Shown one piece after another: positions 1,285-43,590 of a stretch of DNA of 45,644 nucleotides; the stretch's first letter is position 1, and each line of letters starts with the position of its first letter. The notes under the pieces were generated by a model. It was given only the letters and a program-made list of their open reading frames with translations, was not told the origin of the DNA and searched no databases. Both the position numbers and the translations under genes were made by a program. The stretch comes from Christensenellales bacterium (GTDB taxonomy: Bacteria; Bacillota; Clostridia; Christensenellales; DTU072), in contig JBJFAO010000156.1 of assembly GCA_051887955.1 (NCBI GenBank), positions 1 through 45,644 of the forward strand, given 5' to 3'.

Positions 1285-1285
1285 T

Positions 1286-6108: not shown

Positions 6109-6137
6109 TTGACACGCTTTGATTTATGGGTTATAAT
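6109..6137 (+). promoter_or_regulatory. Perfect-consensus promoter for the giant gene
   Basis: TTGACA (6109-6114), a 17-nt spacer, TATAAT (6132-6137). An A/T-rich tract (6078-6100) lies upstream. The predicted leader is ~58 nt, with GGAG at 6189-6192, 9 nt before the ATG. Confidence 0.6.
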
Positions 6138-6201: not shown

Positions 6202-6312
6202 ATGACACCAAAAAACAAAAAAACGACGCACGGCATTTTCGGAGGCTCACGCCTTCGTTGCTTGCTGATGCTTCTGATGATTATCGCGCTGGTATTCAGC
6301 ATAGCGGCGTGT
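6202..6312 (+). other. Lipoprotein (SPase II) signal peptide with lipobox
   Basis: The N-terminus is MTPKNKKTTHGIFGGSRLR (basic n-region), CLLMLLMIIALVFS (h-region) and the lipobox I-A-A-C, with Cys37 at 6310-6312. A Gly-rich linker, SERTEGGENGGGG, follows. Confidence 0.7.
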
Positions 6313-15300: not shown

Positions 15301-18300
15301 TACGTAAACTCCTTTGCGTACACGACCTACGGCTTCAAGACCACGGGAGACGCCACGCTTAACGGCTCGATTGACGATTACGTAAGAGAAAACAACATTT
15401 TCATAATTTCGGAGGGCAGATACGAAAAGTACGCCCTAAACGTTTCGCACACCTGGAAAGTGGTGGCTTGGGAATATCTTGTCGACAACAAGTCCATAAG
15501 CCCGGAAACCGCCGAAAATTATTATAATACCGCATTCAAACAGTACGTTATCAGCGCGAGAGGACTTCTTACCGCAATCGAATACAGGTATGCAGCCTGG
15601 ACGTACATAAACGCCGACGCTCAGAGAGTAATAGGGTGCGTTTATCCCGAAATGGCGTTCTCGTTGAGAAAGATTGTCGACGAAAACGGGGATTCGGTAT
15701 GGACGAGAATGGACGTTACCGAGGAATATCTGCTTATACTCGAGGATTATTACGACAAATCCTATTCGGATATACCGCAGCTTATAATAGACGCGGCGAG
15801 CAAGAAAGGCGAAATTACCTTAGGTATACTGTTCGAGAATTCCATACTTAACGTAGGCGCGGAAATCGCAAACCTGTATCTGGAAATAAAATTCGTCGAA
15901 GCGGGAGTAAAAATCGCGGAAAGCGATTTGTCGCGCACCAGACTGGAATTCGTTTACGACGATTTCGACAATATAACGGGACAGGAAGAAAGGACCGAAA
16001 TCGTCAACGTGGAAAATCTTGAAAAATCGGTCGAGAAGGAAGGCGGATTTGCCGAAATAGACGAAAACTTCGGGTACGTTTACGCGAAACTCGATATAGA
16101 ATTCGGTCTTAACCTCGACGACGACGCGCGTTACGACTTTACCGAATTGATAAACAGCCTTATTGCGAGCATAGGGCTTGACCTGACGTTCAACGGACAG
16201 ACTTTGCAGATAGCTCCGGTATTGAGCATACTGAACAGTATCGGCAACTACTTCAGGATTTCGTTGGAGGCGAAAATCAATCTTTTCCGTCTTATGAACA
16301 AGGACCTTAGCGATACCGATATATCTCTTACGGTATATTCTCTCGACGGCAGCGGAAATATCAAAGAGACTGTATTGCAGTTGGTGTTCGGCACGGCGGC
16401 GGAGGAGGACGGAACTCTGTACAATTTCGTCTATATAGACGCGCACAGATTCAATATACAACGGCTGTACGTCAAGAACGCCCTCGACCAGATAAAGAAG
16501 CTGTTGGGCAATTCCGATTATCCCGTTTATCACGATATCCGCAACGGAGGTTCGATATCCAAAGCGGTGATGGCGGCGATGATAGCGGACGTGCTTTCCG
16601 CCGGAGAGGGAGACGAAACGGTCTTCGACAGCTTTGCAAAATACGCCGACGCCAACGGAGGAAGCAATCCTTCCGTGGATATCGAGCTTGCCAGATACGG
16701 AATGAGCGTTCAGATAGCCGCCAACGCGGTTTACGCTTTGCTCTCCTTCCTCGGTATGGGCAACGTAAAGAGTATGATAAGTAAGGTCGGAGAGCCGAGT
16801 CTTGCCATAGATATTTTCAGCGTCGCCACGTATAACGACGAAGATATCGTAAAGCCCGACGGCAGCTACGACGACGGCGACAGAAACCTCATAGCGGTAC
16901 AGCTGAATTTCGACAGTATAAACGAAAACGGCGTCGGAACGGGCAGAGGCATAGGGCTTATGCTCGCCATCCGCAATATGGAGCTCAGCTTCAATCAGAA
17001 GCAGAATATAGAATTCAACGAAGAGGAGATACTCGAAAGGGACGAAAACGGCGATCCGATAGATTTTGCGGAAATCGACGGAATGCTCCCGAAAATTGCC
17101 ATAAAAACCTCTATCGTGCTGGAAATCGACGCCGGCGTTACTACGGGAACGAACCTCTATCAGGAGCCGGTAAATACGATAATGAAAAATTATCTCGGCG
17201 GACTCGTTATGGATATAGCCTTGTATATAGCCAACAAGCAGAAAATAACCGTAGCCGTCGACATAGAAGCCAGCCTCGACCTCGGCAACGGCGAGGATAA
17301 CGAATATCTTAAGCACCTTATTTCCGGCTCCTCCATAAGAATAGCTCTCCGCATATTCAGAGTGGGAGACAAGGTTGCGTCCGACAGCACTAAGGAATGG
17401 GCGGTAATTACCTATTTCGGCGGTAATCTCTATATAGACCTGTCCAATCTCAACAGCGACAAACTTTATCTTGCCGACGTAGGTAATCTCGTGTTCGGCG
17501 ACGGAAGCGACAAGCAGACGCAGGCGTTGTTCTCCGCGTACGAAGCGTTGTGCGCCGCCATAGGCAAGGTCAATATAGGAATAGACGCCGAAATAAATAC
17601 GTCCGGTATTTATCTCATAGTAAAAAAGGCGGCGATAGCAAGCCTTCTCAAGGTGTTCGGCTTCGGCGGCTTCGATATGTTCCCCGACGCGGCAATTCAG
17701 GTTTACGTGAAAGGAATGAAGGTTGAGGAAGGCGTAAACACCTTCGACATCGGTTTGCAGCTTGCGCTCGGCGAAAATCTCGTTACCGGCAGTACCGTTC
17801 TCAATCCCGTTCTCGGATTGGGTATTTCGGTAAAGGGCTTGTACGTAGGGTTCAACGGTCTCGACATACAGGTCAGCGACAGCGCGGAATACATTCAGCT
17901 CGACAGACTCGACACCATTTATTTCTCGACTGAGTTCCTTGTAAAAGTAACCGACGAAAAGGGTATCTATAAGCTGGGCGGATTGCTGCAGGTTCTTAAA
18001 AATAACGGCTATTTCGACCTCGGCGCGACTCTCGGCATAGATACCGCAATCGACCCGATAATAGAATTTTTGGAATCGCTCGATTCGGCTTTGTATGCGA
18101 AGGTCGACGTAACGCTCAACATAAACAGCATACTCGAGGATTTGCAGGCAAGGCTGTCCATTTACAATAAAGCTCCGGCGGATCGCGCCGAAGACGAACG
18201 TCCGATACTTAGTCTTGCGTATATACGCGGAGACGTGTATATAGACGCGGAGGGCTTATCCGGCAGCGAAAACTTCTATCTCGGCAAGGTAAAGATAAGC

Positions 18301-21300
18301 GGAATTATGGATCTTATCAAGGCGTTGACCGGCGGAAACGCAACGGAAGAAGCCAAAAACACCTACGAGATGATTAAGACGTACGAGAAGCTTTTCGCAA
18401 AAGAAAACGCCTCGTTCGCAGACGTAACGGAGAAGGCGAGCGGAACCATCAACATAATAGGCGACGTAGTGGAAGGACTTACCGTAGAGCTCGTAAACGG
18501 GGCGATATTCGGACTTGTAAAACAGCTTTTGGGCGTGGACATGGCGGACCTTATCACCAACGTTCAGACTATGGTCGAAAGCGTTATGGATCCGTATCTC
18601 GGTATCAATATCGATCCGAGTATAACCTTATTGATAACCATAGGCTTGCCCAGCACGGCGTACAACGTGACCGAGAGCGTAACGGCGGTTCCGGAGAGTA
18701 TGGCAAACGCCATAAACAAGTGGTACGGAGACGAAAAAGACTCTCTTATCTATCCCGACGAAGTCTGGAACGTGCTTTTCGAGGGAAGCGAGTTATACAA
18801 GCTTTATAATATTTCTTCCGATAAGAAGGCGGAAAAAGTACGCGAATGGATAGCGGGTAACAAACCCGAGATAAGCTCCGTTTACGCGGATATGCAGGTG
18901 CGTTTCCCGAAGATGAGCGACAGTCAGATTTACGTCCTTACCTACGACTATATGATAGGCGAAATCTACGGCAACTCCGTTCTCACCGCGGCGTACGGAT
19001 ATAATTTCTCCGCCGATAAAGAAGAGACCTCCGGCGATAAGCTTAACGTAAAGCTGGAGAGCTTCTATTCCGATTATCTGAAAGCTTACGCGTGGAATAG
19101 CTATTATAATCTTGCGTCGGAAGCTCTGAAGGGAAGAATGGACGACATTCTCTCCACGCAGTCGGACAAGAAATCGGCGTACGACGTGTTCGTTTCGGAG
19201 ATAAGCGACGAAGCCGACGCGTTGAGAAACGTCTACGAAAAGAGCGTATATCGCGAAAAAATAGCGGCGCTTCGTCTGGAAGCTGTTTCTCTCGGCGTAA
19301 ACGACAGCTATTGTTACACTGCGCTTATAAAGGGAATAATGCGCGCCAACTACGCTATGGAAGACGGTTGGATAAGTTATATTTCCGACCAGATTAAATA
19401 CACGTCGGGAGAGGATAAGATTACCGTTTATCTCGCTAAGTACGACGAATTGTATACGGTACAGCGCGCGTACGCGTGGGACGCTTATTACGCTCAGGCG
19501 GACGCTTACGACAAGGCTTTGATGAACGGCGCGTTCAGCTACGCCGAAGGAAGGTATAAAAACGCTACCGAGCAGGAGCTTAAGGCGTACGCGTACGACA
19601 AGTACAAAAAAGACCTACAGGAATCCTCCACCCTCTATCAGGAAGCTTTGGCGGCGGACGATTCGGCGATATTGAAATCGATATTGGTAAACGAAATGCG
19701 CCGTTACAGATATTACGACGGCGATACGCTTGCGGGATTGAGCGCGGACGAAATAAGCGACCTTATCGTAATACTGGACGCACTAAACGCCGCCGTGGCT
19801 AAATACAGCGTTGCAAATACGGTAATACTCAACGCTTATCAGGTGGCGGAGCTCGTCTACGACCTCGTATTCGATCCGGCGACAGCCCTTACCGACGTGG
19901 AAAAGGATTTCGACGGCGTCGCCGTCGACGTAATGAGGAGGATAAGACTTTTCGCCGTGGACGAATTGAGAAACAGCGGCGTCGAAAGAATTACTTCCCA
20001 GCTTATAGCCACCGACGGAGAAACCGACTATGAGAAAATAGAGCTTCTCGACTCTCTCATGAAACGCTATGCCGATAAATTCGTCGTTTTGCGCGGCACG
20101 GGCAAGGAGCTCGACGCCATAACGGCTGCCGCAGACGGCGTTTCTTACAGAACGCAGGCGTGGAACAATCTCATCAGCCTCGAATACAAGAGCCTTCTCC
20201 CCGAAAACGCAGTTATTCTTTCCGCGGAGACGGGCGCGGTCAACAGCGGATACGCATATTCCGGAATAAACAACGGCAAGGAAATCAATCCTTCCCGTTA
20301 CTTTGCCGACAGATACGGTTTAACGGTGGAAAACGACCTTATGAAGGTTTATCTTATATATTCGGAATTAAAGACGCGCGCCGCGGATAAGAGCCTGTTC
20401 GTCACGGCGGAGGAATACGTTTACGATTCCGACAAAATCGGCAACGTCACGGCGATATGTCGCGATTCCGCTTACGGCAAAGACGGATATCTCGTGCAAT
20501 TTTACAGAATGGCGAGAGCCTTCTCCCGTTATCTGTTCCTGTTCGACGCGGCGGGCAAGACCATGACCGCGGAGGAAATAAGCGTAGTAGCGGAAATAGC
20601 TTCGGATAGTTACGGCGTAATTTCTTACGAGACCTATTTCGACTGCTTCGCGGATTATAAGGGCGAAAGCTCGGAGCATTACGGCAGGATAATCACCGCT
20701 ATAAATATCGTCAGGGATATGTACGTTACCTTGAGAGAAGAATGCGCCAAACAGGATAAGACGACGCGCAGGAAAATCGACGTCGCGATAAAGAGCATAA
20801 TGCCGAAACGCGGAATTACCGTCGAAAAGGTAAGCTCGGCGATAGCTTACGGAGATATCGCCGACGTTAAAGATATGCCTTTGTATCCGACGTATCTTGC
20901 TATAAGTCAGTTGCTTATAAATTACGCCGGCAGCAACGCCGCTCTTAACGAGGCGGTAGAGTACGCCGACTATTATATGAACAATCACGCCGATACCGGA
21001 CTTAACGAAAGGATAGCCCTTATTTACGGCAGATATATAAAGATCTGCGATTCGGTACATAAAAAGGAAATAGAGAACGTTATCAACGCATTCAATTCCG
21101 GCGATTATTCCGCTCTTACCGCAGAATGCTGGGCAGGCTTCGGTTTCGAGGGAGATATATACGATTCGGGAAGGAACGTCATAGAGATAAAGGAAAAAGC
21201 GGCCGCCATAAATACGCTGTTTGCCGGATATAACAACGAAGAGTACTCCAAGCGCTTTGCGTGGGAGGCTTGGTACAGACTTTCGTCCACCGCGAGCAGA

Positions 21301-24300
21301 ATAGAGGAAATGGACGCTATGCTTCGCGCGAAGGTGTTCGAGAGCTTGTATTCCGATATTAAGGACATGCTGACCGAGATAATAATCGATTCCGCCGACT
21401 CCGCAATAAAAGAAGGAATGAGCGTAATCGGCGTCAACGCAAAGAAATACGAAAAGCTGAACATAATAGCGTATAACGAGTATTTCTCCGAATTCAAGGC
21501 GGCGACCACAGCCTTATACGGCACGATAAACGGTTATTACGGGGAGATAGACGACGTAGTCGCAGCCGCGGAAAGCGATCTTACCGCGCGTTTCGAGGAC
21601 AACGCTTCCGACTTACAGAAGGCGGAGCTTATGAGAAAGATTTATTCCGAAGTAGTCGCCGATTCTTCCGGCTACGACGCGAAGATAGCTATGGAATGGA
21701 AAGCTACATACGAAACGGCTATAAACGGAATAATAGACGAGGACGCGACGGCGTACGGCAATCTTATGTACGAAAAGCTTACCGTTGCCGACCTCAACGC
21801 GTACGTCGCCGACATGAGAGCCGTGTTCGAGAATATCTCGTCGAGAGTGGTGGACGAATACGGCGCGCGGACCGAAAAGGCAATGCTCGGCGCGGCAAGG
21901 GATAAGACGGCGCAGCTAAGGGACGTCTTCGACGGACATCTCGCCGCTATGAGAAGCGCGGAGTACGATTACTATTACTATACGCAGCTCGACGAATATC
22001 TTAAAAAAGATCCTGCCAATACGAAAGAAAGCTTCGATAACGAGATAGGAGAAGGGACCGTTGTTATCGACTACGAGGAATACCCCGTAGCTTCCCCCGA
22101 TCCGTCGGAAATAACGGCTGCCGCGAATATGCAGGAGCTGAAATCCGTATACGAACGTTTCGCCGCTTGCGACAAGACGGCAAAGCTTCAGACGTACGAG
22201 TATGCCCACGATACCCATAGCATAAACAATGCGGTTGGGATGGACGATACGACGTATAACGTAAACAAGAAACAAGCCAACGCGTACGACTACCGCGCGG
22301 ACAACGCGGAGCTTTACGCATACGCCGATTATCTTGCCGTGACGAATAAGGGGAACGTGTACGACTATAATTACAGAAGGATAACCGCTCTCAGAGGAAT
22401 AGAACAGAACGTCGCGATATCCTCTTCGGTAAAGGACAATATAGCGACGGAGGGCGGCAAGTATCGCGAAACGGCTCTCGGCTACGAAAACCTCATTCAC
22501 GATAACAACAACAAGGAGATAATAGACGCGGTTTACGCTTTCAGTGAGGACGACCGGTATTCCGACGACGCTTATCTTACCTCTTGCAGAGACGAGTTCG
22601 TAACCAAATATAAGGAATATGCGTTGAAAGCGTTCGATTTGCTGTTCTCTTCGGGAAGCATCACGGCTTTGTTCGGCGGAGATATGCCGAGAGCGACGTA
22701 TACCGCCTTTATCGATTGCTATGACGATATGCGCAGTAAAATGAACTCCCTCGACCACGGTTCCGACACGTACTCTTTATACGACCGGACGAGGACGGAG
22801 GTATTGCTGTCCAAGACCGTCAAGAACAAAGCTCTCCTTATGGAAAAAATGTATCTTTCCTACGAGGACGGCACTCTTTCGACGGGAATTATTTCCGACT
22901 TCGACGACTTGTTCGCGAATTATATGAAGGCTATGGAAACGGCGGTTTACGCCGACGCTTTCGCATACTTTACGCAACATATTTATTCCGAACGCAACGG
23001 AGGAATTTACAGCGCGTTCAGAACGCAGATTGCCTCTATGTACGACGGCTATATAAGCTCGGCGACGGCACTCCTCAAAAAGGTATATCTTGCCGTTACC
23101 GGAGAAGAGCTTAACGCAGGCGCCTTTACCGAAGCGGTGACCGCCGTCAACGCGCATCCCGTTCCCGGAGAGTATGCAAAATTCGTGGACTTTGCGACGA
23201 ATATCTCTAATTACATAAAACAATTTACCGACAATTTCGGCGTGTTCGACAACGAAGCCAAGCTTAAAGTCCTTGCGTCGGTAATTTCCGATGGCAACGC
23301 GCTCTACGGCGACGCGGACTGCGTAAACGGAATGAAGAATATAAGAACGGCGTTCGTTACCTTCGTAAGGGAAAACTACTTTACCTTCGGAGCGACCGAA
23401 AGCATCCTCGGCGTAGGAGCTAAGTACTACGACGACCTGTATTCGTTGACGAACGAATTGAGCGCGCTCGTAGCCGCCGCAAACGACGTCGCTAAAATAA
23501 ACGAGCTGAAGGGCTATATAAGCGCTCTCGGTTATTCCGTAAGCGGAAGCGAAGATTATTTCCGTACGCTTACGATAGTCTTCAACGCCGCCAACGGCAA
23601 TATAGCCGGAATAAACAAGGTCTACAGAGCTATGTTCGGAAATTATGCGGCCAATGTTTCTTCCGCGGTTTATCTCATAATAACGGAATCTACGTTTAAG
23701 AATAAGCTTGCCGCAGACTACGAAGAAATAGTCGCCTCTATAAAAGCCAACGATCCGAATCTGAAGACGTTCGTAGAGGGACAGGGGATTAGCGATTCCT
23801 CCTCCGCGCAGGACAAAGCTCTCGCTCTCGTCGCGTTGTCGGACTATATCGAAAGCTACGTCGAAAACGGCAATACTCTGAGCGAAGCCACCGAGGAAAA
23901 ATACGCCGACGCAAGAATAGCGTTGTTGAGTCTTACCTCTCCGGAAGAACACCTCACCCTTTCGGTATTGGAAAGCTACTACGGTTCTTACGCGACGGCG
24001 GCGATAGCGAAGGCGTTGAAGCTGAAATCCACCCTCGAAGCCGGCACCGACGACGCGCTCGAATATCTGACGTTTACCGATATGAGAGATATTTTCGACG
24101 AATATCTCGACTTCTGCAAACAAGAATCCGCTTCCGACCTCGTCAACGTGCTCGAGGACAGCAGGATTCTCGTAAAATCCTTCGATCAGGTGTATAAAAA
24201 CGCGATGTCGGCGTTGGAATCTTTAGCAGACTTTTCTATTTCGATAGGTCTCGAAGGGGCTCAGACAAGCGTACTGTTCGATATAAAGAGATATCAGGAG

Positions 24301-27300
24301 GACGAATCGGGCGCAAGCGTGTCTATGATAAAGGACGTTCTTACCGACGAAGAAAAAGCGGAATATACCGAATATTCCGAGCTTACTCTCCGCGTCAACC
24401 TCAACGCTTCCCTTGCGATGAACCTCGATAAAGGTATACTCGATATAAATCCCTTGTTGGGACTTGTAAACCTTCCCATAAAGATAAGCGAGCTCGATAT
24501 AGAATTTTTGGCGGAGCACACCCTTTACGCAGAAATAAGCGGTTATCTCGGAATAAACTTCGAGGCGCTGTTGAGCGGAGATAAAGACAGAATAAACAGC
24601 TCCATAGTAGGCGAAGTCGCGCTTACTTATTACCTTATCGATCACGATACCGACGGCGAGAATACGAGATTCGAGCAGGTTATTCTTCACATTTGGCTTT
24701 TCGGACCGAGTATTTACGGACAGGTAGAGCTGTTCGACAGTCACGTAAGCGTAGAAATACCCTTTACTCTCGGAGAAATGCTCGTCGGTATGTTCAATCC
24801 CGAAACCTCCGCGGAAGAAGCCGCCGCATTGTCCTCGATAAATTCGGCGATAATGAGCGCCGTTCACGGCGTGACGAAAGAGGAGGCGGCGGAGATGCAG
24901 ACGCCGTTCGAGCAGCTTATGACGGTTGCGAACGCTTCCGAGAGCAGTCTTGCCGACGTGCTGGAGGTTCTGCTTCGCATAAACACTCAGGAGACGGCGA
25001 TTATTCTTACCGTAGATATTCTTGCCGAGCTCGTCAAGATAATATTCAAGGAAGAGACGCTCAGCAGCGGTCTTGAAGACTTGGTCAATCTCGCTCTCAC
25101 CGAAGGCGATATAGCCATCGAATACGGAAACGATTTCGGTATTCGTCTTGGCTTGCACAAAAACAGCGAGGAGGGCAGCGACAAGATAGGTTACGACGCG
25201 GAGCTTGCGTTATTGCGCGACACCCTTATAAGTCTTGACAGAAAACAGTACGATAAGCTCTACAATTCGATAGACACCCTCAAAAAAGACGGATTTTTCG
25301 ACGACTTCTTCAAGCTCGGCACCGACATAGACTCCGACGCCACGATGTCGGAAATCCTCACGTCGGTAATCGGCGCGCGTACGACCGTAAGTCTTAGTAT
25401 TTACCTCGAAAGCGACGTGTTGAAGACGGTGCTCGACTGGAGTAAGCTGTTCAGCGTACAGGAAGTGGACACCTACTTCCAGCTCCGTATTATGCAGAAC
25501 GCAAGAGGCAGACTCCGTTTGGACATAGCTCTCGATATCGACCTCGAAAGAGAAACCTTCGACTTCTATATAAGAGGATACAATACCGATAACGAAAACT
25601 TCTTCAACATTTACTACGTGAGCGGAATGCTCAACAACGATTCCGGCGCGCCCGGCGTACTTGCTCCGAAGTTTTACGTGGACAGCGGAGAGAGAGGGCA
25701 CGATAAGCTCATGCTCACTCCCGAGATGGGTTACAATATGTTCAACCTCAATCTGGTAAACATATTCTTCTATCTTATAAATAGCGAAAGCCGTTACGAC
25801 ATTCATGCGCAGAACGTCTCCGGTTACGTAGCCGACAACGCGTCGTTTGACGCTCTTGTCGACGAAATGGATTGGGGCGACGTTCTGGACGGTCTTACCT
25901 TCGGCAAAGGAACGATAGGCATACAGCTCGCGACGACCATAATCAACGCTTTCCTGCAAGCCTTGTTCGGATTCGAGTTTGCGGAATTGGGCAACATTAC
26001 GTTGGAGCTCGACAACGTGAACAACACGCTGTTCCTCAATATCCCCATAGACGCGCCCGTGTACGACGAGGGCGGCAACGTGGTCAATTCGTCGAAGCTG
26101 AATTTCGGCTTCGGATTGTCCGACGTGGATATTAAGCTCGGCGCGCGCGAGGATTTCTTCGGAGAAAGCGTATCGTCCAAGTTCGGCTCCGGATACGAGC
26201 CTCTCGACAATTACGTGTGGGTAACCGAAGTCAACAGCTCGTTGCACGTAAACGACGAATTCAATACCGTGCTCGACCTGACGGGACTTACCTCGAGTAT
26301 CATCAACGGACTCGGAGTCAATATAAAGAGCGGAGATATTCTGGACAAAGAGATACTGTTCGCCCTCCGCACCTACGTGGACTTTGCGGATTTGAGCAAT
26401 CTCAGATTCGAGCTCGAGGTTTCGCACGGCAACGGGGCGGGAGCAAAGGTACAGAGGATACTCGGCATAAAATACGTCGGACAAGCGAACGACGGAACCG
26501 TTTTCGTCGATTTGTCCGGTCTCGGATTGCCGAAGATTTCCATAAGCAATATAAACATAGGTTCGCTCGTCAAGGAAATTCTGGCTAAACTCGAAAAGAG
26601 TCTGAGTAACGACGAAGAACAAATCACGCCTTCCTCCGCGGACGGAACCGTCGGAAACGATATTACCGACGCGGAAAGACGGTCGCAGATGTATCGGGAT
26701 ATCGCGGATATGGAATTCGGGCAGAATATGCTCATGTACGTATATTCCAGCGAAGAAGCAAGCCTTGCCATAACCGGCGCGTTGCTCCTTACCCTTATCG
26801 GCAACCTGAACGATACCTTAGGCGGCGTATTGCCCGACGCGATACTGAACATACCCACGTTCAGCTATCTCAAAATAGGTAGAGACGACGCGGATAAGGT
26901 CAACGGAATACAGATTGTTCTGGACGAAAACAAGCAGTTCTCGATACGCTTTAATTTCGACAAGAGTTATTCGCATCTGTCGGTTCGCAGCAAAGTGAGC
27001 GACATTACCGATATGACGGTGGTAAGCGACGCGGACAAAGACGAGTATACCTCTATAGACAGTCTGAAAAATCTGCACATCGGTCTTAACCTCGAGCTTA
27101 CCTTACAGACGATCAATCCCGATACAGGGAAGAAGAGCGACGTTATCGAAGGCTTCGAGGATATGCTGGAGAAGATGCTCGGCTTGCAGAGCGACACTAT
27201 TATGTTCGATTTGCAGGATACCATAATGACGTTCAGCATAATGCTCGACGTCGGCGTGGATCTTACCGACTTTGCAAAATCCGTTATAAAACTCGAAATT

Positions 27301-30300
27301 TATTACAACGACGAGGTTATGATAGGCGTTTACTACATAGACGGAGTGGTATACGTAGACCTCGGTACGCTCGGACTTTTCCGCGCGAGCATAAACGGCA
27401 TAGACCTTGCCGCGATGATAACGGGCATGCTTTCCGGCACCGATTTCGAAAAGATGATTACCGTCGACGGTATAGACGTGGCGGGACTTGTAGGAGGACT
27501 CCTTGACGCGGATAAATTAAGCGAAGGCGGAAGCGGCAGCACCGTAAAATCGGGCACGTTCGTCAAGAAGGAGACCAAGGGTTCGTCTATAGCGGAACTC
27601 GACGCCGCCGTAAAGAAGCTGTCCGACGGGACTGCAAACGGCGGTTATACAAAGGATCAGATACGCCTTGTCGCCGACGCTATGACCGCAGGTAAGATAA
27701 AGTCTCTCGACAATCTGACAGCCGATCAATATAAATCGTTGTACGATTACATAACGGGCGGAAAGAGTATATCCGAATATATAGCGAGCGACGATTTTAC
27801 CGGATTCGTTTTATTCGGCGAAAGAGGCAGAGTGATAAGCGCGATAACCGCGATAATCGACGCCGCGCAAACAGCCCTCAAAGGAATGAGCGCCGAACAG
27901 CTTGCCATTACAATAGAAGAATGCAAATTGAGCGGAAAGACCTACAACAAGATGGGCATAAGCCAGCTCGAGCTTGCGTTGACGATAGTCAGGAAATACG
28001 AGCTTGCGAGCATAGACAAGATGAGCTCGTCTCTGAAAGCGAAAGCTATTGCCGAAACGGTGGACGAAAAGGGTTCGGCGATTAATTCCGCCCTGTACAC
28101 CGGCGACGCTACGGCGAAAGAAGCCGTCGAGAAGTTTATTAAGAGCTTTGTGGCGGCGTTTGCCGGATGCAACGTACATATTCTCAACGCAATTATCGGA
28201 GGTATGGAGTCGGCGGGACTCGAATATCTCCAGATGAAGGGTTCGCACTACGACGTCGCGGGCAATTCCGACGCCGAAGTTACCGCAAGGAAGAAAGCCT
28301 TCATTGAAGGCATGGTAAAGAAATACGCCGTCGATTACGTCAACGTGACGTACGGAATCACCGATTCCGAGATAGACCTCGTTATTGCAAGGTCGCTCGC
28401 ACAGTTCGGTATTTACGAGATAGCGGATTCTACCGTCAGCGGCACCGATGGCAACAACGCAAGCGGCACGCCGTTAATAAATCTCATTCTTACCGAAGAA
28501 GAGATAAAGATTAATCCCAACGCGGCGTCTTTGGGACTTCTCGTGGGAATGATTATGCCGGGTAAAGGATTGACGATACCCGACTTCAAGCGCATGGAGC
28601 TGGTGCTCAATACCTACGACGGACTCAGCAACATAAACTTCAATTTCGTTCTCGACGGATACGGCAACAAATTCCATCTCGCCATTCCTACGGGCGGATT
28701 GAAATTCGTGTTCAACGAAGGAGTGGGAGAGCTTGCCGGCGGCAAGGACAAGAGCTTTACCGAGATATTGGAATTGCCGGACGTTTCTTCTTACGGCGGA
28801 CTTACCGGCGTAAGCATGAATGCAAGCGGTCTCAATATGAATACCACCGCTCTCGTCAACAGCTTGTTGGACGGAATATTCATCGACGACCTTACCATTT
28901 ATCTCGAGCACAGAACGGATTATTGGAACAGAAAAGACTTGTTCTCGAAATATCCCAAGGTCGACGCTACCGGTCCGTATACCTACGCCGACTGGGACGA
29001 CGGCTATCTGGGTAACGACGCCCAAGCGCTCAGCACCGTGGCGAAGATATTGAATATAGTCAACAAGATTTATAATCTTATCAACTATAAAAACATAATA
29101 GACCTGATAACGGGAACTTCCGGACTCGTAGACTCGGCGACCGCTTCAAAGAACAGACCTAAGCTTATCCGCAACCAGTACGCGAGAGGAAAAGTCGTCG
29201 CTTACAAGACGGTGACCAACGTAATCAACGCGGATATCTCCACGCCTTCATATAAGCAGGGCAATATAAGCGCGCATATCGATCATCACCAGATACTCCT
29301 TTCTATAGGAATGTCTCTGACGATAAAGATTTATATCACCCTCGATCTCAGTACCTTCCTGAACGGTAAGAACGAAGGAATGGAGAGCAAAGGTCTCAAT
29401 ATTTCCAACCTTGCCGGTATGGTATTGTTCCCCGACAGCATGTTCGCCTCCACCAACGAGAAGAGCGGCTCCGGGCGCTTCTACGGCAGGGTAACCGACA
29501 CCGAAGGCAATCCGATAGAGGGAGCGACGGTAACCGTATATAACGGCACGGGCGATTATCAGGTAAGAACGACGGACGCGGAAGGATATTATTACTTCCT
29601 CAATCTTCCCGTTACCGAACGTATTTACAGAGAGTATGACCTTTACAGGCTCAATAAATGGTTCGACGATCTGAATAAGGACGAAAATCCCAACAACAAT
29701 ATCGTATTCGGAGAAAAATATATAAACTTCGACGGTAAAGATTACGAATTCGTCGACGGAGTCTATTACAACGTCGGTGACAGAAGCACGATAAGCATAC
29801 ACAAGAGCGGCTGCAGCTCTTATTACGAAAGAGAAATTTTCGTAACGCCGAAGGAAACCAATTCCGCCATAAGAAGAGACGCCGTGCTCGTGGACGTATC
29901 GTCGAGCGGAGAAGTACCCAAGTCCGTTACCTTTACCGGTAAGACGTATTACAGAGACGGAGAAGCTCTCAAGCCTTTCGGCGGAGCAAGCGTCGTTTAT
30001 AACGGCGGCACCGGACTTACGGTATCCTCCGTTCTTGCCGAAGAGGGCGTGGGTACGTACAGCATGACCGTGGACGTTTACGAATCCGTCCTCGATTATT
30101 ACGAAAACGTAGCTACTTCCTTGCTCGCGCACAACTTTACGGCAAACATATCCGGCTACGAGCTCGTCACCTTCAACGTAAACGAGGGCGGAAACACGAC
30201 CAACTATTCGGCAATCGCTCTCAATGCGTTCCTCAACGAAGCTATAAAGCGCGGTTCGAGCGGACTGACCGTCAATCTCGACCTCATATTCGATCGTACC

Positions 30301-33300
30301 GACGTAGTCAGCACGATGATAGTGGGTAAAATAAGAGTTCCTAAGGAAAGAGGAAGCGCCGAAATGGTGGTTCCCGAACCGGGCACTTACGAGATTTGGG
30401 TAAGCGTCGGCGGACATACTTCCGGCGTGGTGGATTTCTACGACCTCGCTCCCGACGACTTCTCGGTGGCGGTGGACGAGGACGGCAATTTCTCCTTTAC
30501 CGGAAAAGAGCTTGCGCTCGAAGACGTGGGAAGCAGCTCTTACATAATAAAATTCCGCAGCGCGGTCTACAAGAATATCGACCTTAAGGCGGATTCGAAC
30601 GGATTTGCTTCGGATACGTACGGACGTATGTACGCGCTTGACACCTACAATTCGCAAGTAAGCTCTTATTACGTAGAGCTGAACCCCGTTTACAGAGAGG
30701 AGCACTGGTCGGAAAAGAGCGTAGGAATAAGCGAAGAAGAGAATGTTTCCGACATAGGCAAGCTTCTTAGCAGGGTAAGAATAAGATTGGGCGCGGACAA
30801 GCTCGACGGAGAGGTGCATGACGACGGCGACAACGGCATGCAGGATTACGACCACAGCTATCAGGACGAAATGAGCAATCTTGTTTACGAGGGAAGCAAC
30901 GTCGTCGACAGATACAATACTTACACGTACATAGAAGCATGGCTCAATTCTTCCCGTATCAACGAGATGCTCGCGGGAGTCGAAAGCATAATTCTCGGCA
31001 TGATGGGCGTTACCGGCATAGCTCCGGGACAGACTATAAGCGCGCAGGATATTTCGTTGGGCGCGACTACCACGAAGGACGACTTTAATATCGATATGTA
31101 CACCGAAGCGCAGCTTCAGCATACCGGAGCGGATAAGCTTCTCGAATTGTTCGAAAAGAGATATAAAGGTCGCTACAACGAAAACGATTTCCGTATCTTC
31201 GACAAGGTTTACGTAGATAAGGGAGCATATTATCAGGCGACGCACAGCGCGCTGGCTAAGATGAGCGCGGGATTGGTGCATTTCGTATTAACGATGGTAT
31301 TCGACAGCACGGGGCTCGCTACGATGGAGGCGCTCGGCGTTCACCTTACCGACCTTATTGCGTTCGCTATTCTCGATCCGACGGCGTTCGAAGCCCTTAA
31401 CGCAATCAAGATGCTCGGTGCAATCCCCGGTATTGGTTGGCTGTTTACGGGAATAGGAACCGTTGCGGGCTTCCTCGGTTCGTTGCTTTCCACGGTAGGA
31501 CAGCAGCTCGGCGCATTGCTCGGAGAGCTCGCCACGATATTCTCGTCGTTATTGCCGATTCAGCTCGGCTACAACCTGTTCGATACCGTTGATTTGAGAG
31601 GAAGTCCTCTCTCAAAAGCCGGTTACAACGCGGAAAGCTTCGAGGATAAATCTCTCGGCACGGTTGACATAGGCGGAGGACAATTCGTCAATATGTACAA
31701 AGACGCGAGGACGTACGATCTGAGCACTTATGCGAAAATAACCCTTAATTCCGGCAGCAACGGCGGATATCTCGACCGTATTTCTCTGTTTATCAACAGC
31801 GCAAGCTATGACAGGGACAGCGAAATAAGCGGCAATCTGGATGACGGGAACCGCATGGACGAATACACCGCTATGCAACAGGGCGACTGGAACTACAACT
31901 ATTGGGAAAACAACGGACGAGTAGGCGATTACTATTCGGAAACTCCCGTATACAAGACGGAAATTACGTATACCAAGATAGACGACCTTTCTTCTCACGA
32001 GGGAGAGTACTATTATAAGGATCTCGACGCCGTTGAAAGGGGCGACAGCGATCCGTACGTATTGAGTACGCTTGCGACCGAGGACGGGGAATACGAAACG
32101 TATACGACGACGTCCGGCACCGAAGAACGCGTGCCTTACAGCCGCGAAGAAACGGAAACGACGGAAGTTGTTTCCAGAGAGGTCGATTACCATACCGATC
32201 CTACGGCAACGCACGGAATAAAGAGCGTCGATATAAAATCGGTAACGGTAATAAGATCGGGAGTCGTGGACGAGGACAGCGAAAAGCTGATGGAAGAGTT
32301 TATAAAGACTACGAACGTGAATTCGTACGCCATTATAGACGAATACTATATAGATCCGAACACCGACCAGAAGGTCGTGTACAACAGGGAGTTCATTTAC
32401 GACGACGAAAAGAATGCAAAAGAGGACGTGTATCAGGAGCTCGAAATAAAGAACAACGGCATAGATATCCGTCAGGTAAAAGACGCGTTTAACGGCACGT
32501 TCAAACGCACGGAGTACGACCAATACGAAAAAGTATGGTCGGACGAGGTAGTCGTTCCGCCGACGAAGATTATTTTCTGGGATCCCTTCGATCTGACCGA
32601 CTTTACTATGGAGGGCGGAACTTGGGCGTCATCCGACGGCTATACCGGCGTCCGCAGAAATACCGATCCGTTGATTACGGTGGAAAAAGTATTGCCCAAC
32701 AGGTACATGGCTTCGTTCGCCGACGGTAACAGCACGGGTACACAGGGTATGAATATCTATTGGAACGTAAGCGCGTTGAGCCTTAACGCCGAGGGTACTG
32801 CCAATTCCAAGCAGAAAGAGTACCTGCAGGGCTTTGTCGGCAACGGCGTTTACGCAAAGATAGAGGTTGAGGTCAAGCCCTTTACCGTAGACCTGGTGAG
32901 TGCGAAGGCTCAGATAATAAAACAGGTTTCGGAAAAAATGATTGTCGATCCGTACACGTTCGACGCGGAAGAGTTCGTAGCGGGACTTCCCTCCTTCTTC
33001 TATTACGATTACGTAAGCGGAGAGGGCTCGGAGACGCGCAAAAAGACCTATTTGTTCAACGAATTGAAATGGTCGCTCGATTATAAGGTGATAGACGGAG
33101 TGAGAAGGTACACCTCCCTCGATTACGCTACCGACGGATTCGAGCCTTACGTTAACCTCACCTTCCGCGCGTACGAGGCTTTCCAATCGGAGGACGACGA
33201 GGACGTTTGGGTAGACGCAGAGGGCAACACGCCTTATACCACCGTTCAGATACCTCTGAAGGTAATAAATTACGAAGTATCGCGCGTGGAAAGCGCGGTG

Positions 33301-36300
33301 GACAACAGCGTCGGCGGCATCGTACCCGTTGGTATGCCCGAGGGCTACGGCGGTATGATTACCTTCAATCCGCTCAACAACCGCGATCCTTACAGCTCCT
33401 TGTACTATCTCGAATCCTTCGATACGGTAGTGCTGAAAGACGGCAGAATTGTTAACGATTGGGCGATTGTACCCGGCAGCTTCAGGACGATAAAGAAGGA
33501 CGGCGCAATCCTCGACGAATACGACAGCAGCTATTCCGGAGAACAGACCTACACGGTAAGCTATAAGGTTACCGACGGAACGGGATACGTGCAGACTGTT
33601 TACGTTTACGTCAAGATACTGTCCTCCAACATTCTCCCCGGACAGAGCTATTATTACGACGGAGAGAACAAGGTTTATATCGAAAGCGGTAAAGAAATCG
33701 TCCCGTACGCGGCTACGACGGATTACGACGCGGCTTTGGATAAGGACTACGTAGACGGCAATATCCTCGGCAGACTCTATCTGTCCGACGCGATAGAGGT
33801 CGTTTATGAGGGCGGATACGAAGAAAGAGTCATTCTCGGCGAAAGCAAGAAGAGGAGACAGATTTACGTAACCTACAACGAAACGAGCGGAAAGCTCGAA
33901 GTAAACGGCGCGACGATTATAGACGGCGACGACTTCAGCTACAGAATACCGTATATGAACTATGCGGACGCCGGAGTCAAGACGATAGAAGCGGTAATCG
34001 GACGGCACGGTTACGCTAAATGGGAGCTCGACGATATGGTGAGCGACGTACTGCTGAGTCATCTGGACGTAAACTACACCGAAAACAAAGCCAAAGCGGC
34101 AGCGTACGACAAGCTTTATTCGGAGCTCAGCCGTTACGACAAGCTTCGTCTCAACAAGATTCTCGCCGAAACCGGGAACAAAGCGAGAGCCTGGAACGCA
34201 TGGTATGCCGCGTATACCGACGACAAGCTGGATACGTACAGCGAAAACGACGCGTTGCATATGGATATGCTTCTTACCGAAGCTACTTTATCCTACTGCA
34301 ATATAAGCTACACGACAGCTCTCAGCCTCGCTTACGAAAAGCTTCTTGTGGATAATACCGAAGCGAACACCGATAAGAACAAGATAAGCGTAGCGGAGCT
34401 CAGAGAGATGTTCGGAGAGATAAAATCCTCTTACGTCAACGAGACTACTGCGGAGCTGCAGGCGCGTACCTTCAAGAAGTGGTACGACGAACGCACCAGA
34501 CATCAGCTTTCCATAATAAGAGAGGTGTTGCCGAGGAGAGCGGAAGCGGTAGGTAGCGTAAGCGTAAATCCGACGCAGGGCTTTACCGTTGCGGATCTGC
34601 CGAAATACGTATCGGTCGGATACGCGGGCGTAATCGACTCCGTTACCGACGGGTACGACATGATAAGCACCAAGGTGACCTGGATTGTGGACGAGGAAGA
34701 AATCCTCTCCAAGATGGGATACGACGGCGCGATAGTATCGGCGGAAGTCATATTGAAAGACGAGTTGTTCGGCGATCAGGTACTCCGCGGAGTGGGAATA
34801 CAGATAAATCAGCTCAAGGTATCCGGAATAGCTTCTTACTTCGGTTCGTCGGATCTGCCCGCCGTAAGCGCGTACGACGAGGAGAGCGTCGACCGCTTCC
34901 TGTCTTCGTATTACAGTGCGGACGCGATAGAAACCAAGTCCTACGCCTTCGCGATAATCGTGGAAGGAATGAGCGAGCTCATAAGAATCAGCACCGAAAG
35001 CGGAATGGAAAACGCAGTCTGGGAGCTTGCCACCGGCACCGAATATTATCAGGGCACGACCAACAGAAAGGTATTGTGGCAGTACGTCGAAGACAGCAAC
35101 GGAGACGGAAATTATGAAAACGACGGTTTAAGCTACGATCCGAACGCAGGCGCGCACAAGATAAGAGTCTGGGTACAGAGCAAGAACTATTACGAAATCG
35201 GAGCCGGTTCGGGAAGTAAGTGGCAGTACGCCGTGGAAATCGACTTGACGAAGATAGCTTACGCCAACAACGGAAGCTCGTACGTTGCCGACCTCGTTTA
35301 TTTCAACAAGCTGAAAGACGAAACGGTGGTAAGCATAGAAAAAGCGAGAATAGACGGCGACGAAAGCAAGGTTTCGGTGAAATTCAACGAGACTACGGGC
35401 AAGTATACCGTCGCGTTCAATCCGACCGAAGTCAAATTCGACGAAAATACCCTCGTAGAGTTCGACGTGGACTTAGGAAGAGTCGAAACGGGAGCGAACG
35501 GAAAGAGAGTTTCTCACTGGATGAAAGCCGTTGTCGATTTGACCGGAAACGAGGACTTCTACAACAAGAGAAAGGTGGAAAGCTCCATAATATTCGGCGA
35601 CAAGTATAACAACGTTCAGCGCGTGCCCGTAACCCTCATAAACAAAGCGGAATACGCCTTTGACGACGTGACCGAGATAGTTTATAAGAAAAACGGCGCG
35701 GTAGTGGATATGAATTCTCAGATAGGTACCGCTCTGCAAAACCTGTCCGACCTGCTGCCCGACAGCGCGGTAGTCGCGGGCACGATGGATAACGTGTACG
35801 AAGAGGTTACCCTCCCCGTGGCTTGGAGCGAGGTCGAAGAATACGGATTGGACGGACGTACCGAAAGCGGAAAGGCGCCCACGGCGAGAGCTACGATAGG
35901 CGACCGCACGTTCGGCTATATCCCGTCGAAAACGGTAAGCATAATTCTCGGCGCCGAGACCGAAGTGGCGGTAGAAGGCATACCCGATTCGATCAACGTC
36001 GATCCGTACGGAGTCAACGATTTCGAATGGCTCGTCTCCACGTACACGGTCGCCACGTTGACGACTAAAGTCGTCGACGTAAACGGTACGATAAGGACGG
36101 TTACTAAGGACGTAGACGTCGACATAGTTATGGAAGACATCGACCTTGCGGATTACAGAGAAGATAATTTCGTAAGGAAGACCTATTCGGTAAGAATGCG
36201 TCTCGGACACACCGTGACTAACGGTAAGAACGGACAATTCGACGTAAGGTACGAAATCGAAAGAAACGTAGTGCTCAGAGACAGAAGCATAAGCGATATG

Positions 36301-39300
36301 TACATAGCCGGCTTCAACGGAGTATCGGGCGGAGAGATCGTATGGTCGGAAATAGACTATCTTACCGCAGACGTTTACGAAAAGGCGAGCGCGGATGATT
36401 TCGTGTATACAGTAAGAGTCAATCCGACGCAAGCGACTATAAGTCAGGTTAAGGCGGAGCTCGGCGAAAAGTATTACGGCGTAAAGACGATTTACGAGTA
36501 CGACGAAAGCCTGCCGTCGGAGAAAGCGTACGAGATAGACGAACCCAAGTACGGCTGCTTCATCGCGTACGGTAGCGGAAGCGACGCCGTTTATGCGCCC
36601 GAGGTCGTGTTCGAAGGCTTCGACGACGTAATATATACGGCGAACGGCGGAGTTTATACCGATAAGGTTTACGCGGTCGTAGGCAGCGGAGAATTGCAAC
36701 AGAGAATTCCCGTTACCGTCAACGTGAATCGCGCTCTCGTCAAGGGACTTAAGCTGTTGCCGTACTATTATTCCGAAAGCGAAGAGTACTCGGCGGTCGG
36801 AGTAAACGGCGGAATATACGTGCCCGTACAGACCGATTCCGACGGCAACGTGGAAAGACTTGTTATCGAACCGTTCCTCGGATTCGACAATATGCCGGCG
36901 GAGGTCATCGCGGTAATAGACGTAGGCGGAGGAGAAATCGCTTATCGCAGAGTAAAAGCGGAATGGGACGGCAGTCTCGTAACTGCCAATATGAAGCTTT
37001 CGGGCGGCAACTTCGACAAGGGCGTCACCGGCAATCTGGCGTACGCGACGGTATATGCTTACGACGACGACGAAAGAACGGGCGAACAGGTAATAGAATT
37101 TTCGGTGACCGTACCCGACAGAACGGTATTGGGATACGAGGTCAGCTACGACGGCGTACACTATAAAGCGCTCAACGACCTCGTATACGGAGAGGACGAC
37201 AACGCCGACGCATATACGAACGAATTGCTCCTCAATCCGTACAATATGCGCAACGCTCTTCTCGACGCGTACTCTGCGGCAAACGGAGCGGATCCGTCGG
37301 AAAACGACGTCTATAACGCTTCCTCCAAAGTTTACGACGCGTCGTTTAATAAGACGGACGCCGCAGGAAACAAGGTAAGGAACGCAGAGTTCACGTTCTT
37401 TACTCACGTCAAGGTAGTATGCGAGGGCGGTTACGTAAGAGAATACGAGCTTACCGAAAGCAATTACGTTGCGTTTGGGAAGATAAACGCGACAAACCTC
37501 TATTCGGGCGGTCGTTCGTTGTCGATAGACCTCAGAGTCGGCGAAGCTTACGTTGACGGCGGCAACGGCACGTATTCAAGGGAAGCCGCCGTGCTCAACG
37601 TAGCTCCCAACGTTTCCGGCGGAGGCTTCGACGATTACGTCAGAGTCAGAATACTCGATATGTCTTATGCGTCGGGACTTGAAAAGGATATCTATTATAT
37701 CGATCCGTACGGAGTTCTGGGCGCGACGGGCAAAGGCGGCGTGGTATTCGAGCCCACCGCAGAATATCCGCAGGATACCGTGCGTAACGTCAGGATAACC
37801 GGTAAGGACAGTGAAAAATACGTGCTCGAATACATGGGAGACAAGATTGCTTTGGCTACCTACGAATTCGAAGAAGTCAACTATGACGGAAGCGCGATAA
37901 ATTACAGATGGTTCGATATAGAGAGTATCGATAACGTTACCGGTAAATTCACCCTCAAAGAGCGCAAGCGCAACGGCGGAAGGATTAAGTACGGTAGCGG
38001 CGTAGGAAAGATTGCCGTTACGTTGGGAAGCGAACGCGACAACGCAAGCGCGGGCGTTCAGGTATACAACATCCCGGTAATATACGTTGACAGAACGATA
38101 GTAGACCTCGGCTTCAACTCTGAAAACGCGCCGTTCTACAAGACGGTGGTATGGGACAACGGCAACGTGGGCGGAGGATTCGTATTCGACCCGTTTGTCG
38201 CCTACAATCCGAGCGCGGACGGCTTTGCCGACAACGAGCAGGGCTTCCTTAAGAACGGACAATACGGCACGACCGTTACCTTCGCCAACACCGATATAGA
38301 CAGAATATTCGGAGGACGTCAGGGCAGCAGGTTCAGTTATGACCTCGCTATGGATCAGAAAGACGTCAGAGTGGGCGTAACGTTCGAAGACAAGAAAGTA
38401 AAATGGAGATACACCGGCGGCGAATTCGAGGCTAAGGCTTTGATAGGTTCGGGAGACAGTCTGCAAGAAATCGAAGTAATGGTAAAACTTTTGTCTCGTC
38501 GCGTAGACGTCAACCGCACCGGCACGGTAAGAGGCTTCGGCAGCTCCGTATTGAAGCCGGGAGTAGACCTGTTTACCAAGCTGAAGGTATACGATTATAT
38601 CGGCGTAAGCAACGTGGAAGCAAAGCTCATAGGAGACTTCTTTGCGATAGGAAATACCGAATTCGAAGTATACTTCGAGGACTTTGACGAACCGATAACG
38701 TACAGAATGAACGCGGTGGCGGAAAGCGTAGGCAACTACGTGCTGACGGAAAGCGAGCTTAATTACAAAGAGAACGACGTAATTTATAACAACGGCGTAA
38801 GGATGTCCTTTGCTATGGATACGTCAGATTCTATAAGCTACAAGGGCGGAAAGCTCAACTTTACGATGACCATACCCGGCTACGGAATGGGCAGAAGCGG
38901 ACAACAGAAGGCGACTATTTCGGTAGGGCTCGAAGAGCAATACGTCGTTTACGTCAATCCCGCGGAAGAGGACGGTACGGAAATAACTTACGACACGTTC
39001 TATGCCGACGCAATTAACGCCGACGCTATAGAATACGACGGAAGCAGTCACAGATGGTTTGTCACCAATCCGTATTACTTTATACAGGAAGGCGGAGTGA
39101 GAGTTCCCGACACGGTAGTGGCTTACGTTGCCGACAAAGCTACTTACGACGAGTACGTCGAGCTTACGAGGGTAACGAAAGCAACTCAGGGAGGAGAAAC
39201 GGTTTACGTTCCCGCTCATACCGAAGCGGAAATCAACGCATGGCTCGGATCGCACGCGTCCTCGTTCGGCAAATACGCGGTAGACGTCGTATGGTCGGGC

Positions 39301-41001: not shown

Positions 41002-41043
41002 ACCAAACGGAGCGTTGCGAGAGCGACGCTCCGTTTGGTTTTG
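41002..41043. terminator. Bidirectional intrinsic terminator between the giant gene (+) and the glycosylase gene (-)
   Basis: ACCAAACGGAGCGT (41002-41015), a 10-nt loop, ACGCTCCGTTTGGT (41026-41039), then TTTTG. An A-run upstream (40995-41000) supplies the U-tract for the opposite strand. Confidence 0.7.
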
Positions 41044-42906: not shown

Positions 42907-42935
42907 TTGCAAAAAACTCCGTCGTGTGCTAAAAT
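42907..42935 (+). promoter_or_regulatory. Promoter for tRNA-Pro
   Basis: TTGCAA (42907-42912), a 17-nt spacer ending in TGc (extended -10), TAAAAT (42930-42935). It lies 14 nt upstream of the mature tRNA 5' end. Confidence 0.55.
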
Positions 42936-42949
42936 AGCTTACGAAAAAG

Positions 42950-43026
42950 CGAGGAGTAGCGCAGTTTGGTAGCGCGCTTGGTTCGGGACCAAGAGGCCGT
43001 GGGTTCGAATCCCGTCTCCTCGACCA
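42950..43026 (+). tRNA. tRNA-Pro (anticodon CGG), CCA encoded
   Basis: 77 nt. The acceptor stem is CGAGGAG/CTCCTCG and the D stem is GCGC/GCGC with a GG loop. The anticodon stem is CTTGG/CCAAG with loop TTCGGGA (C34 G35 G36, G37). The T arm is GTGGG-TTCGAAT-CCCGT, followed by discriminator A and CCA. Confidence 0.9.
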
Positions 43027-43490
43027 AAAATTAAGGACGCCTACAGGGCGTCTTTTTTTGAATAAAGCAACGTGTAATAATACGGCAGGGATTCGAACGG
43101 GCGGCAAAAGCGACAATCCGGTGAATTGTCGCTCCGCCCCGGCGTGTCGGCGAGCGTAAGCGAGAGTGCGAGCGAATCCCGTCTCCTCGACCAAAAATTA
43201 AGGACGCCGACAGGGCGTCTTTTTTTGGATAAAGTAACGTGCAATAAATACGGCAGGGATTCGAACGGGCGGCAAAAGCGACAATCCGGTGAATTGTCGC
43301 TCCGCCCCGGCGTGTCGGCGAGCGTAAGCGAGAGTGCGAGCGAATCCCGTCTCCTCGACCAAAAATTAAGGACGCCGACAGGGCGTCTTTTTTTGAATAA
43401 AGCAACGTGTAATAATACGGCAAGGACGCCGACAGGGCGTCTTTTTTTGAAAAAATAAATGGAATAAACACGGCAGGGACTCGAACGGGA
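43006..43490 (+). repeat. Tandem 167/168-bp repeat that starts inside the tRNA-Pro T-loop (2 full units, 1 rearranged partial unit, 1 stub)
   Basis: Units start at 43006, 43173 and 43341. Each begins CGAATCCCGTCTCCTCGACCA (the last 21 nt of the tRNA), followed by the terminator hairpin and an A/T-rich spacer. After that comes GGGATTCGAACGGGCGG-CAAA-AGCGACAAT-CCGGTGA-ATTGTCGCT-CCGCCC..., followed by CGAG[CA]G x3. The 113-nt core is identical between units A and B. The spacers differ at about 5 positions. Confidence 0.85.
43033..43059 (+). terminator. Intrinsic terminator after tRNA-Pro (first of four copies)
   Basis: AAGGACGCC, a TACAG loop, GGCGTCTT, then a T7 run. Near-identical copies occur at ~43199-43227, ~43367-43395 and ~43421-43449. 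Confidence 0.7.
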
Positions 43491-43590
43491 TTTTGTTTTA
43501 TTAAATTGTTTTTGAATTAAGTACAAAATCAGGCAAAGGTTTATTTGAATGCGTAGTATGGAATAATACGAACGATTCGGAGGTGGAAGA

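Follow-up and report, generated by a model that had tools for sequence, protein, structure and literature searches.

A glycine-rich, lineage-specific insertion within the conserved helical region of a predicted giant lipoprotein from a Christensenellales bacterium

The DNA analysed here, referred to below as the window, comprises 45,644 nucleotides of contig JBJFAO010000156.1 from a Christensenellales bacterium. According to the list of open reading frames (ORFs) and the translation, a single ORF on the forward strand, at 6202-40989 and encoding 11,595 amino acids, encloses the whole of the glycine-rich hydrophobic segment at 31261-31580 that is the subject of this study. As judged by alignment with its homologues, the glycine stretch is a lineage-specific insertion of variable length in a conserved helical region. 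With modest confidence, we take the segment to be the hydrophobic helical centre of an orphan extracellular domain (residues ~8165-8535) in a giant protein that is probably held at the cell surface by a lipid anchor. The helical region would consist of four or five hydrophobic helices. The glycine-rich core would represent a clade-specific lengthening, of ~43 residues in comparison with distant homologues, that covers a loop and the N-terminal end of the last helix. The spacing of its Gly, Ala, Ser, and Thr residues would bring this long last helix into close packing with the pair of near-invariant helices that precede it, by helix-helix packing of the GxxxG type inside a soluble or protein-shielded hydrophobic core. 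The whole protein would lie outside the cell, with the N-terminal lipid as its sole tether. We infer the helical packing, the burial, and the extracellular location of the segment from sequence comparison. Among the options raised in an earlier sequence-only reading of this DNA, that of a buried core is the closest to the reading favoured here.

An exhaustive HMMER search of 1.84 billion clustered representatives, with residues 7900-9099 as query, returned 13 proteins only, while contig scans added four loci from Clostridia/Christensenella metagenome-assembled genomes (MAGs) and 11 metagenome loci. Seven closer sequences were aligned (alignment A1), and 19 family members were tabulated for length and glycine columns. 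The orphan domain (30694..31806, forward strand; ~370 amino acids) was examined in alignment A1, and carries the invariant motifs R..HWS, RIRLGAD..DG, YTYIE.W, G[RK]YNE.D, GAY.QA..SA..K...G..H, DLI, IP, LP, GSP, and YD.S.YAK.TL. Within this domain, the stretch equivalent to residues 8372-8432 varies from 9 to 68 amino acids across the 19 members. It is essentially absent from P0005, P0006, P0010, and L010-L014, shorter than that of the window in L001, L003, L006, P0004, L002, L004, and L008, 61 amino acids long in the window as in L005/L007, and of similar or greater length in P0002/L009. Seven distant members lack it. In P0005, a DLIAF-like element runs straight into the conserved last helix, with no core. 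Relative to the distant homologues, the insertion of variable length occupies 31372..31497 on the forward strand (residues ~8391-8432), holding the first three quarters of the core as well as an IPxhG motif (I8408, P8409, and G8412). The helix that follows (31498..31578, forward strand; residues 8433-8459; QL.G.LL....S.LLP.Q..Y) is the sole part of 8372-8459 that is found family-wide, and all other members carry D/E within it, at the positions of G8437 and G8441 in the window. The helical region is closed by a G-S-P motif (31600..31608, forward strand), which is invariant in the seven close members and appears as N-P or S-P in the distant ones.

The glycines themselves display little conservation. 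None of the ten in the core is invariant, either in the seven closer sequences or family-wide (0/10 in both cases). Each core column holds Gly in 1-10 of the 19 sequences, columns 8406-8419 are gapped in 11-14 sequences, and positions 8437 and 8441 are mostly occupied by D/E/N in other members. Among the members that bear the insertion, the sole conserved glycine is G8412, located within IPxhG. Moreover, the long uncharged core is common to the window and L005/L007 only. The equally long insertion of P0002/L009, a sister clade, contains lysines and its simplified Hessa sum is +4.1 to +4.6, and that of the orthologues L001-L004 is +3.9 to +5.3. A conserved transmembrane glycine zipper, as had been proposed from the window alone, is therefore not supported, since orthologues do not keep the Gly positions and distant homologues lack the core, which is an insertion of variable length. 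At the DNA level, a search for the origin of the insertion revealed no direct or tandem repeats of note.

Constraint on the region is concentrated elsewhere. The residues invariant in the seven closer sequences are D8384, L8385, I8386, P8393, I8408, P8409, L8439, L8451, P8452, Y8457, F8460, and G8467-S-P8469. The strongest constraint was observed in the hydrophobic helices at 31243..31431 on the forward strand (residues 8348-8410), where 63 amino acids are perfectly identical with the metagenome relatives L005/L007. This is the longest run of identity with L005 over 1,315 aligned residues (72% identity overall), the next longest being 22, and it overlaps the clade-specific insertion in part. 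Within residues 8354-8403, 19 codon differences from L005 are synonymous and none is nonsynonymous, compared with 71 nonsynonymous among 266 codons in the remainder of the 316-residue region (Fisher p = 1.3e-6). In the core, 11 of 38 codons differ nonsynonymously from L005, which is the background rate (p = 0.70). All 11 of these substitutions replace one hydrophobic residue with another, and nine of the ten glycines are kept in L005. Because the core evolves at the background rate and residues 8354-8403 have no nonsynonymous changes, the constrained element is the preceding helix pair together with the IP motif, rather than the Gly pattern. This supports a degree of functional importance for the hydrophobic helical region. 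That the strongest purifying selection acts on the helices adjoining the core would fit a packed core.

Two other readings bear on this pattern of constraint. It is unlikely, in our estimation, that the hydrophobic helices form an interface for homo-oligomerisation or partner binding, in which their small-residue spacing would mediate close helix contacts between different copies of the giant, or between the giant and another surface protein. In favour of such an interface, hydrophobicity is too high here for exposure to solvent, a perfectly conserved run of 63 residues is typical of interfaces, and GxxxG favours the association of helices (PMC12470825). An essential interface shared by the whole family is made less likely by the variable length of the region and its loss from distant homologues. 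Still less probable is a neutral low-complexity expansion, that is, a loop rich in glycine and hydrophobic residues and prone to indels, with no specific role and noticed merely through the length of the protein. Such a loop would account for the wide variation in length, the background rate of change in the core, and a run length and GxxxG count that fall within chance. It is at odds with the hydrophobic character kept in every insertion-bearing member, with the retention of nine of the ten glycines in L005, and with the lack of any DNA repeat that accounts for the insertion.

Translation of frame 1 across 31261-31580 is exactly as the sequence-only reading had quoted it. The uncharged Gly-rich core of 38 amino acids, MLGAIPGIGWLFTGIGTVAGFLGSLLSTVGQQLGALLG (31411..31524, forward strand; residues 8404-8441, MLGAIPG...GALLG), was recovered with the four GxxxG spacings attributed to it (starting at 8406, 8419, 8433, and 8437), both translation and residue count being in agreement. 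It contains ten glycines and one true GxxxGxxxG, GQQLGALLG at 8433-8441. As the longest run free of D/E/K/R in the giant, it exceeds the runner-up of 29 amino acids. An uncharged run of at least 38 amino acids is obtained in 8.9% of whole-protein residue shuffles, and four GxxxG per 38-residue interval in 25% of shuffles; across the whole giant, 70 GxxxG were observed and 72 expected. Neither the run length nor the GxxxG count of the core goes beyond chance in a protein of such length. The pattern (G/A/S)xxxGxxxG, by which a transmembrane glycine zipper is defined (Kim et al. 2005, as cited in PMC10434224), occurs at GQQLGALLG (8433-8441) and GTVAGFLGS (8419-8427), and this count also lies within chance (25% of shuffles).

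For a membrane-spanning helix, the hydrophobicity of the core is borderline. Its Kyte-Doolittle (KD) value over 19 residues is 1.62, which ranks 9th in the giant, with eight other 19-mers higher. Its simplified Hessa 19-mer sum is +1.64 kcal/mol, which ranks 2nd, the signal peptide having a sum of -3.63 kcal/mol, and its Wimley-White octanol 19-mer value of -6.0 ranks 4th of 44 segments below zero. The description of the core as the only long uncharged hydrophobic stretch thus holds for the length of the uncharged run and not for hydrophobicity, where it is just 2nd, 4th, or 9th according to the scale. The helices preceding it are hydrophobic and yet not amphipathic as had been thought, with a hydrophobic moment of 0.05-0.07 over the full length of both.

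It is instead the larger region that exceeds chance, rather than the core run or the GxxxG count. Residues 8350-8455 form the most hydrophobic 106-residue interval of the giant, with a mean KD of 1.15 (z = 4.0) compared with 0.78 at the next peak, a value reached in 6 of 2000 shuffles. They also form the least charged interval of that length, with 7 charged residues compared with a mean of 25, namely six that are acidic and a single Lys, with Arg absent (net charge ~-5). The helices preceding the core consist of 10-16 hydrophobic residues, broken by D, E, or P. The helix following the core carries E8442 in the window and D/E in all homologues, and no basic cluster follows the core. The segment was therefore rightly regarded as special insofar as the region is a hydrophobic extreme and something within it is constrained, but the constraint falls on the preceding helix pair and not on the Gly pattern.

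These data bear directly on topology. A true two-pass membrane hairpin, in which the segment acts as a second tether and the N-terminal part of 8,350 amino acids forms a loop, is in our judgement highly improbable. The uncharged run of 38 amino acids with its borderline hydrophobicity, and the L005 value of +0.36, are compatible with such a structure. A hairpin would comprise two hydrophobic segments, each at least ~18 amino acids long, connected by a short loop and showing a positive-inside charge bias, and only one segment of transmembrane length was found. No positive-inside signal is present in a loop, because six of the 106 residues are acidic, one is Lys, and none is Arg. Furthermore, the segment is split by the invariant Pro8409, with a predicted break near its start, D/E occurs in the putative second helix of every homologue, and the collinear P0005, without such a segment, has the same C-terminal part. 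The two-pass or re-entrant hairpin suggested earlier is disfavoured for these reasons. With a single pass, the C-terminal 3,100 amino acids would end up in the cytoplasm, yet P0005 has a homologous C-terminal part without the segment, which argues against stop-transfer. Hydrophobic helices of this kind also occur elsewhere in the family: in P0005 the helices of a recurrent module have simplified Hessa sums of +1.7 to +2.1, being as transmembrane-like as the core in the window, and those of the window have sums of +2.5 to +2.7. Since the module helices of both proteins are about as hydrophobic as the core, such helices are a normal building element of these secreted giants. An internal sorting signal or gene-fusion relic, with an LPXTG-like motif, a hydrophobic stretch, and a basic tail, was also considered and rejected, since neither the motif nor a basic tail is present, and collinear homologues exist that lack the segment.

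Structure prediction with AlphaFold2 was performed on residues 8101-8570 with five sequences and on residues 8230-8545 with eight sequences. Both secondary-structure strings, at low confidence, are all-helical over ~8340-8461 with a break at ~8406-8411, at the invariant Pro. The mean predicted local distance difference test (pLDDT) scores were low, at 34 and 39; the alignments are too shallow. Several points weigh against a packed helical centre. At these pLDDT scores, both models are too low in confidence to show burial. A mean KD of 1.15-1.32 over 106 amino acids, with ~7% charged residues, is unusually hydrophobic for a soluble domain. The core of L005/L007, the closest relatives, is more hydrophobic than that of the window, with a KD of 2.11 and a simplified Hessa sum of +0.36. 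Finally, the core substitutions are hydrophobic-only in 11 of 11 cases and display no polar face, a pattern that may also fit a lipid-exposed helix.

The points on hydrophobicity and substitution would be accommodated by a latent membrane-active element in the clade of the window, shielded at rest, which on contact or another trigger inserts into the membrane of another cell or into the outer leaflet of the producer. It might function in the manner of a Gly-rich fusion peptide, or of the hydrophobic hairpins found in toxins that form pores or translocate. It would draw on the most hydrophobic 106-residue interval of the giant (6/2000 shuffles), on the transmembrane-grade core of L005/L007 (KD 2.11), on core substitutions that are hydrophobic only, and on the very strong constraint upon a clade-specific insert. 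Glycine-zipper helices are, moreover, known to drive membrane damage in TelE, CdzC/D, Tse4, and VacA (PMC10434224). We nevertheless consider this reading improbable, as most homologues have a charged core or none, the glycines show no conservation, no toxin or pore family was matched in Pfam or PDB, the neighbouring genes are housekeeping genes with no membrane immunity gene among them, and the segment is internal, with 3,100 amino acids following it, instead of forming a terminal toxin domain. A more specific version is more doubtful again: in the window, L005/L007, and perhaps L001-type relatives, a transmembrane-grade helical insert might have been acquired and then frozen, giving the giant surface lipoprotein a latent module that inserts into membranes or acts like a fusion peptide. 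Were the membrane-active reading true, contact with a partner or competitor cell could allow a Christensenellales-like gut anaerobe to permeabilise that cell's membrane or to anchor itself there, and such a mechanism would give gut anaerobes a novel means of interacting with the cells around them.

TelE, TspA/EsxX, CdzC/CdzD, Tse4, and the N-terminus of VacA resemble the segment in possessing a hydrophobic helix rich in small residues, with GxxxGxxxG, in a secreted or surface bacterial protein. Glycine-zipper toxins possess conserved, essential glycines, carry the motif in a small toxin domain at one terminus, and are encoded beside a cognate immunity gene (PMC10434224). Here, in contrast, the glycines are unconserved, the motif is internal to a protein of 11.6k amino acids, homologues exist without the motif, and no immunity-like gene lies nearby. 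Nor does the giant resemble a protein with a terminal toxin domain delivered by a type VI, type VII, or type I secretion system, as the core begins at residue 8404 of 11,595, is followed by 3,154 residues, and belongs to a protein with a Sec/lipoprotein signal. The pore-forming region of TcdA/TcdB, the colicin pore domain, and the T domain of diphtheria toxin are similar to the segment in that a charge-poor, hydrophobic helical stretch of ~100 amino acids occurs in a large soluble secreted protein, here one from a clostridial lineage. They differ in that no sequence match to the giant was found in Pfam or PDB and the region of the giant varies in length across its family. GxxxG is common in the packing of soluble as well as membrane helices (PMC12470825). 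Soluble packing of the GxxxG or small-xxx-small type likewise involves a long hydrophobic helix, set beside others that are hydrophobic, in which small residues recur at regular intervals, although the region of the giant is more hydrophobic than is typical of soluble helix bundles, and its packing is predicted from sequence. Chance alone can be expected to yield a long, uncharged run rich in GxxxG when a protein is very long, and it is conservation, rather than the spotting of a motif, that decides its meaning.

On the evidence of its sequence, the giant is a member of a rare, unannotated family of predicted giant lipoproteins, all relatives of which derive from Clostridia/Christensenella-like MAGs or metagenomes. 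It is collinear with P0003, P0005, and P0006 at 22-47% identity; P0005, a predicted full-length lipoprotein of 7,125 amino acids, is collinear with the entire giant at 22-31% identity. A word-indexed protein search with a 600-residue region and with an eight-sequence profile gave no match, though the HMMER search and contig scans show that relatives exist. In one relative, on the contig of L016 (1-15489), the homologous giant appears as three consecutive ORFs on the same strand (>1,050, 498, and 4,162 amino acids), representing a frameshift, an assembly artefact, or a naturally split version. In the literature, no relevant description of a giant protein in Christensenellales was found. Other giant bacterial surface proteins resemble this one in being encoded by a single ORF of >10,000 amino acids, with few annotated domains and a predicted extracellular location (bioRxiv 10.1101/2023.11.21.568195). 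Those of Omnitrophota have numerous transmembrane regions and SecA-like domains, and those of Oscillospiraceae have RCC1 repeats (bioRxiv 10.1101/2023.11.21.568195), whereas the present giant is predicted to be anchored through its lipobox, has hardly any Pfam domains, and contains internal modules of a loose kind only. The more useful leads are the rare, unannotated family itself and the orphan domain of ~370 amino acids with its clear invariant motifs, and the hydrophobic stretch of 63 residues under exceptional purifying selection is the obvious first target for study of these giants.

The ORF, at 6202..40989 on the forward strand, encodes an acidic, Cys-poor protein. It represents a real coding sequence, because the changes relative to L005 are mostly synonymous in the most conserved part. 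At its N-terminus (6202..6312, forward strand), a predicted lipoprotein signal peptide, MTPKNKK...LLMLLMIIALVFS-IAAC37, combines a basic n-region, a hydrophobic core, and a lipobox of the form [LVI][ASTVI][GAS]C, with Cys37 as the predicted site of lipidation. The motif ...IIAACSER is also present in the full-length homologue P0005. The earlier view of a lipid-anchored host protein is therefore upheld, as far as a lipoprotein signal with lipobox IAAC, kept in P0005, can indicate.

Searches of Pfam and NCBIfam over all 11,595 residues gave almost no matches, the sole Pfam match above the cut-off being CarboxypepD_reg at residues 7761-7804 (nt 29482-29613). The orphan domain has no match in Pfam, NCBIfam, or PDB. 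Over the region of the segment, Pfam gave none at E <= 0.01, and none at E <= 1 in any of the eight aligned members, while a PDB profile search with the region returned chance antibody matches only. PDB sequence searches with the giant gave no match, and no LXG or secretion-system domain was detected in it by Pfam/NCBIfam. The "Ig-like" (immunoglobulin-like) label previously attached to the C-terminal ~3,100 amino acids found no support in Pfam. Self-BLAST of the giant for internal repeats gave one weak match only, and a hidden Markov model (HMM) seeded by hand, which mostly recovers its own seeds, identified a loose recurring strand-plus-helix motif. The signature of this loose module, in which a beta-strand precedes a hydrophobic helix with ...LG[VFM][DE] at its end, recurs over residues ~700-8300 (6202-31000 of the window), with instances near residues 702, 903, 1601, 1995, 2385, 3477, 3779, 4092, 6240, 6548, and 8229. 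The orphan domain that holds the Gly-rich core opens with one such motif (YTYIEAWLNSSRINEMLAGVESIILGMMGVTG). This recurrence suggests that the N-terminal 8,300 residues may be highly diverged repeats invisible to BLAST.

The giant gene appears, from sequence signals, to form its own transcription unit. A sigma-70-type promoter match, TTGACA-17-TATAAT (6109..6137, forward strand; 12/12, a consensus match only), sits 65 nt 5' of the ORF. Directly 3' of its stop, at ~41003-41042, a GC-rich hairpin followed by TTTT was noted by eye and was not called by the scanner. The neighbouring genes are housekeeping genes, encoding Sir2, formate-tetrahydrofolate ligase (FTHFS), FeoB, a PP-loop ATPase, UDG, and an aminotransferase. 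Among the neighbours in the window, neither an immunity-like gene nor an adjacent small hydrophobic ORF was found near the giant. Antisense ORFs have no Pfam matches, and Rfam has no matches at the giant locus. Further downstream, a 168-nt unit is repeated ~3 times in tandem (42912-43489 of the window), immediately following tRNA-Pro(CGG) (42950-43026). Each copy ends in a terminator-like hairpin (AAGGACGCCGACAGGGCGTCTTTTTTT), and Rfam gave no match there besides the tRNA. An ORF on the reverse strand (43041-43724) reads through these repeats and is probably spurious.

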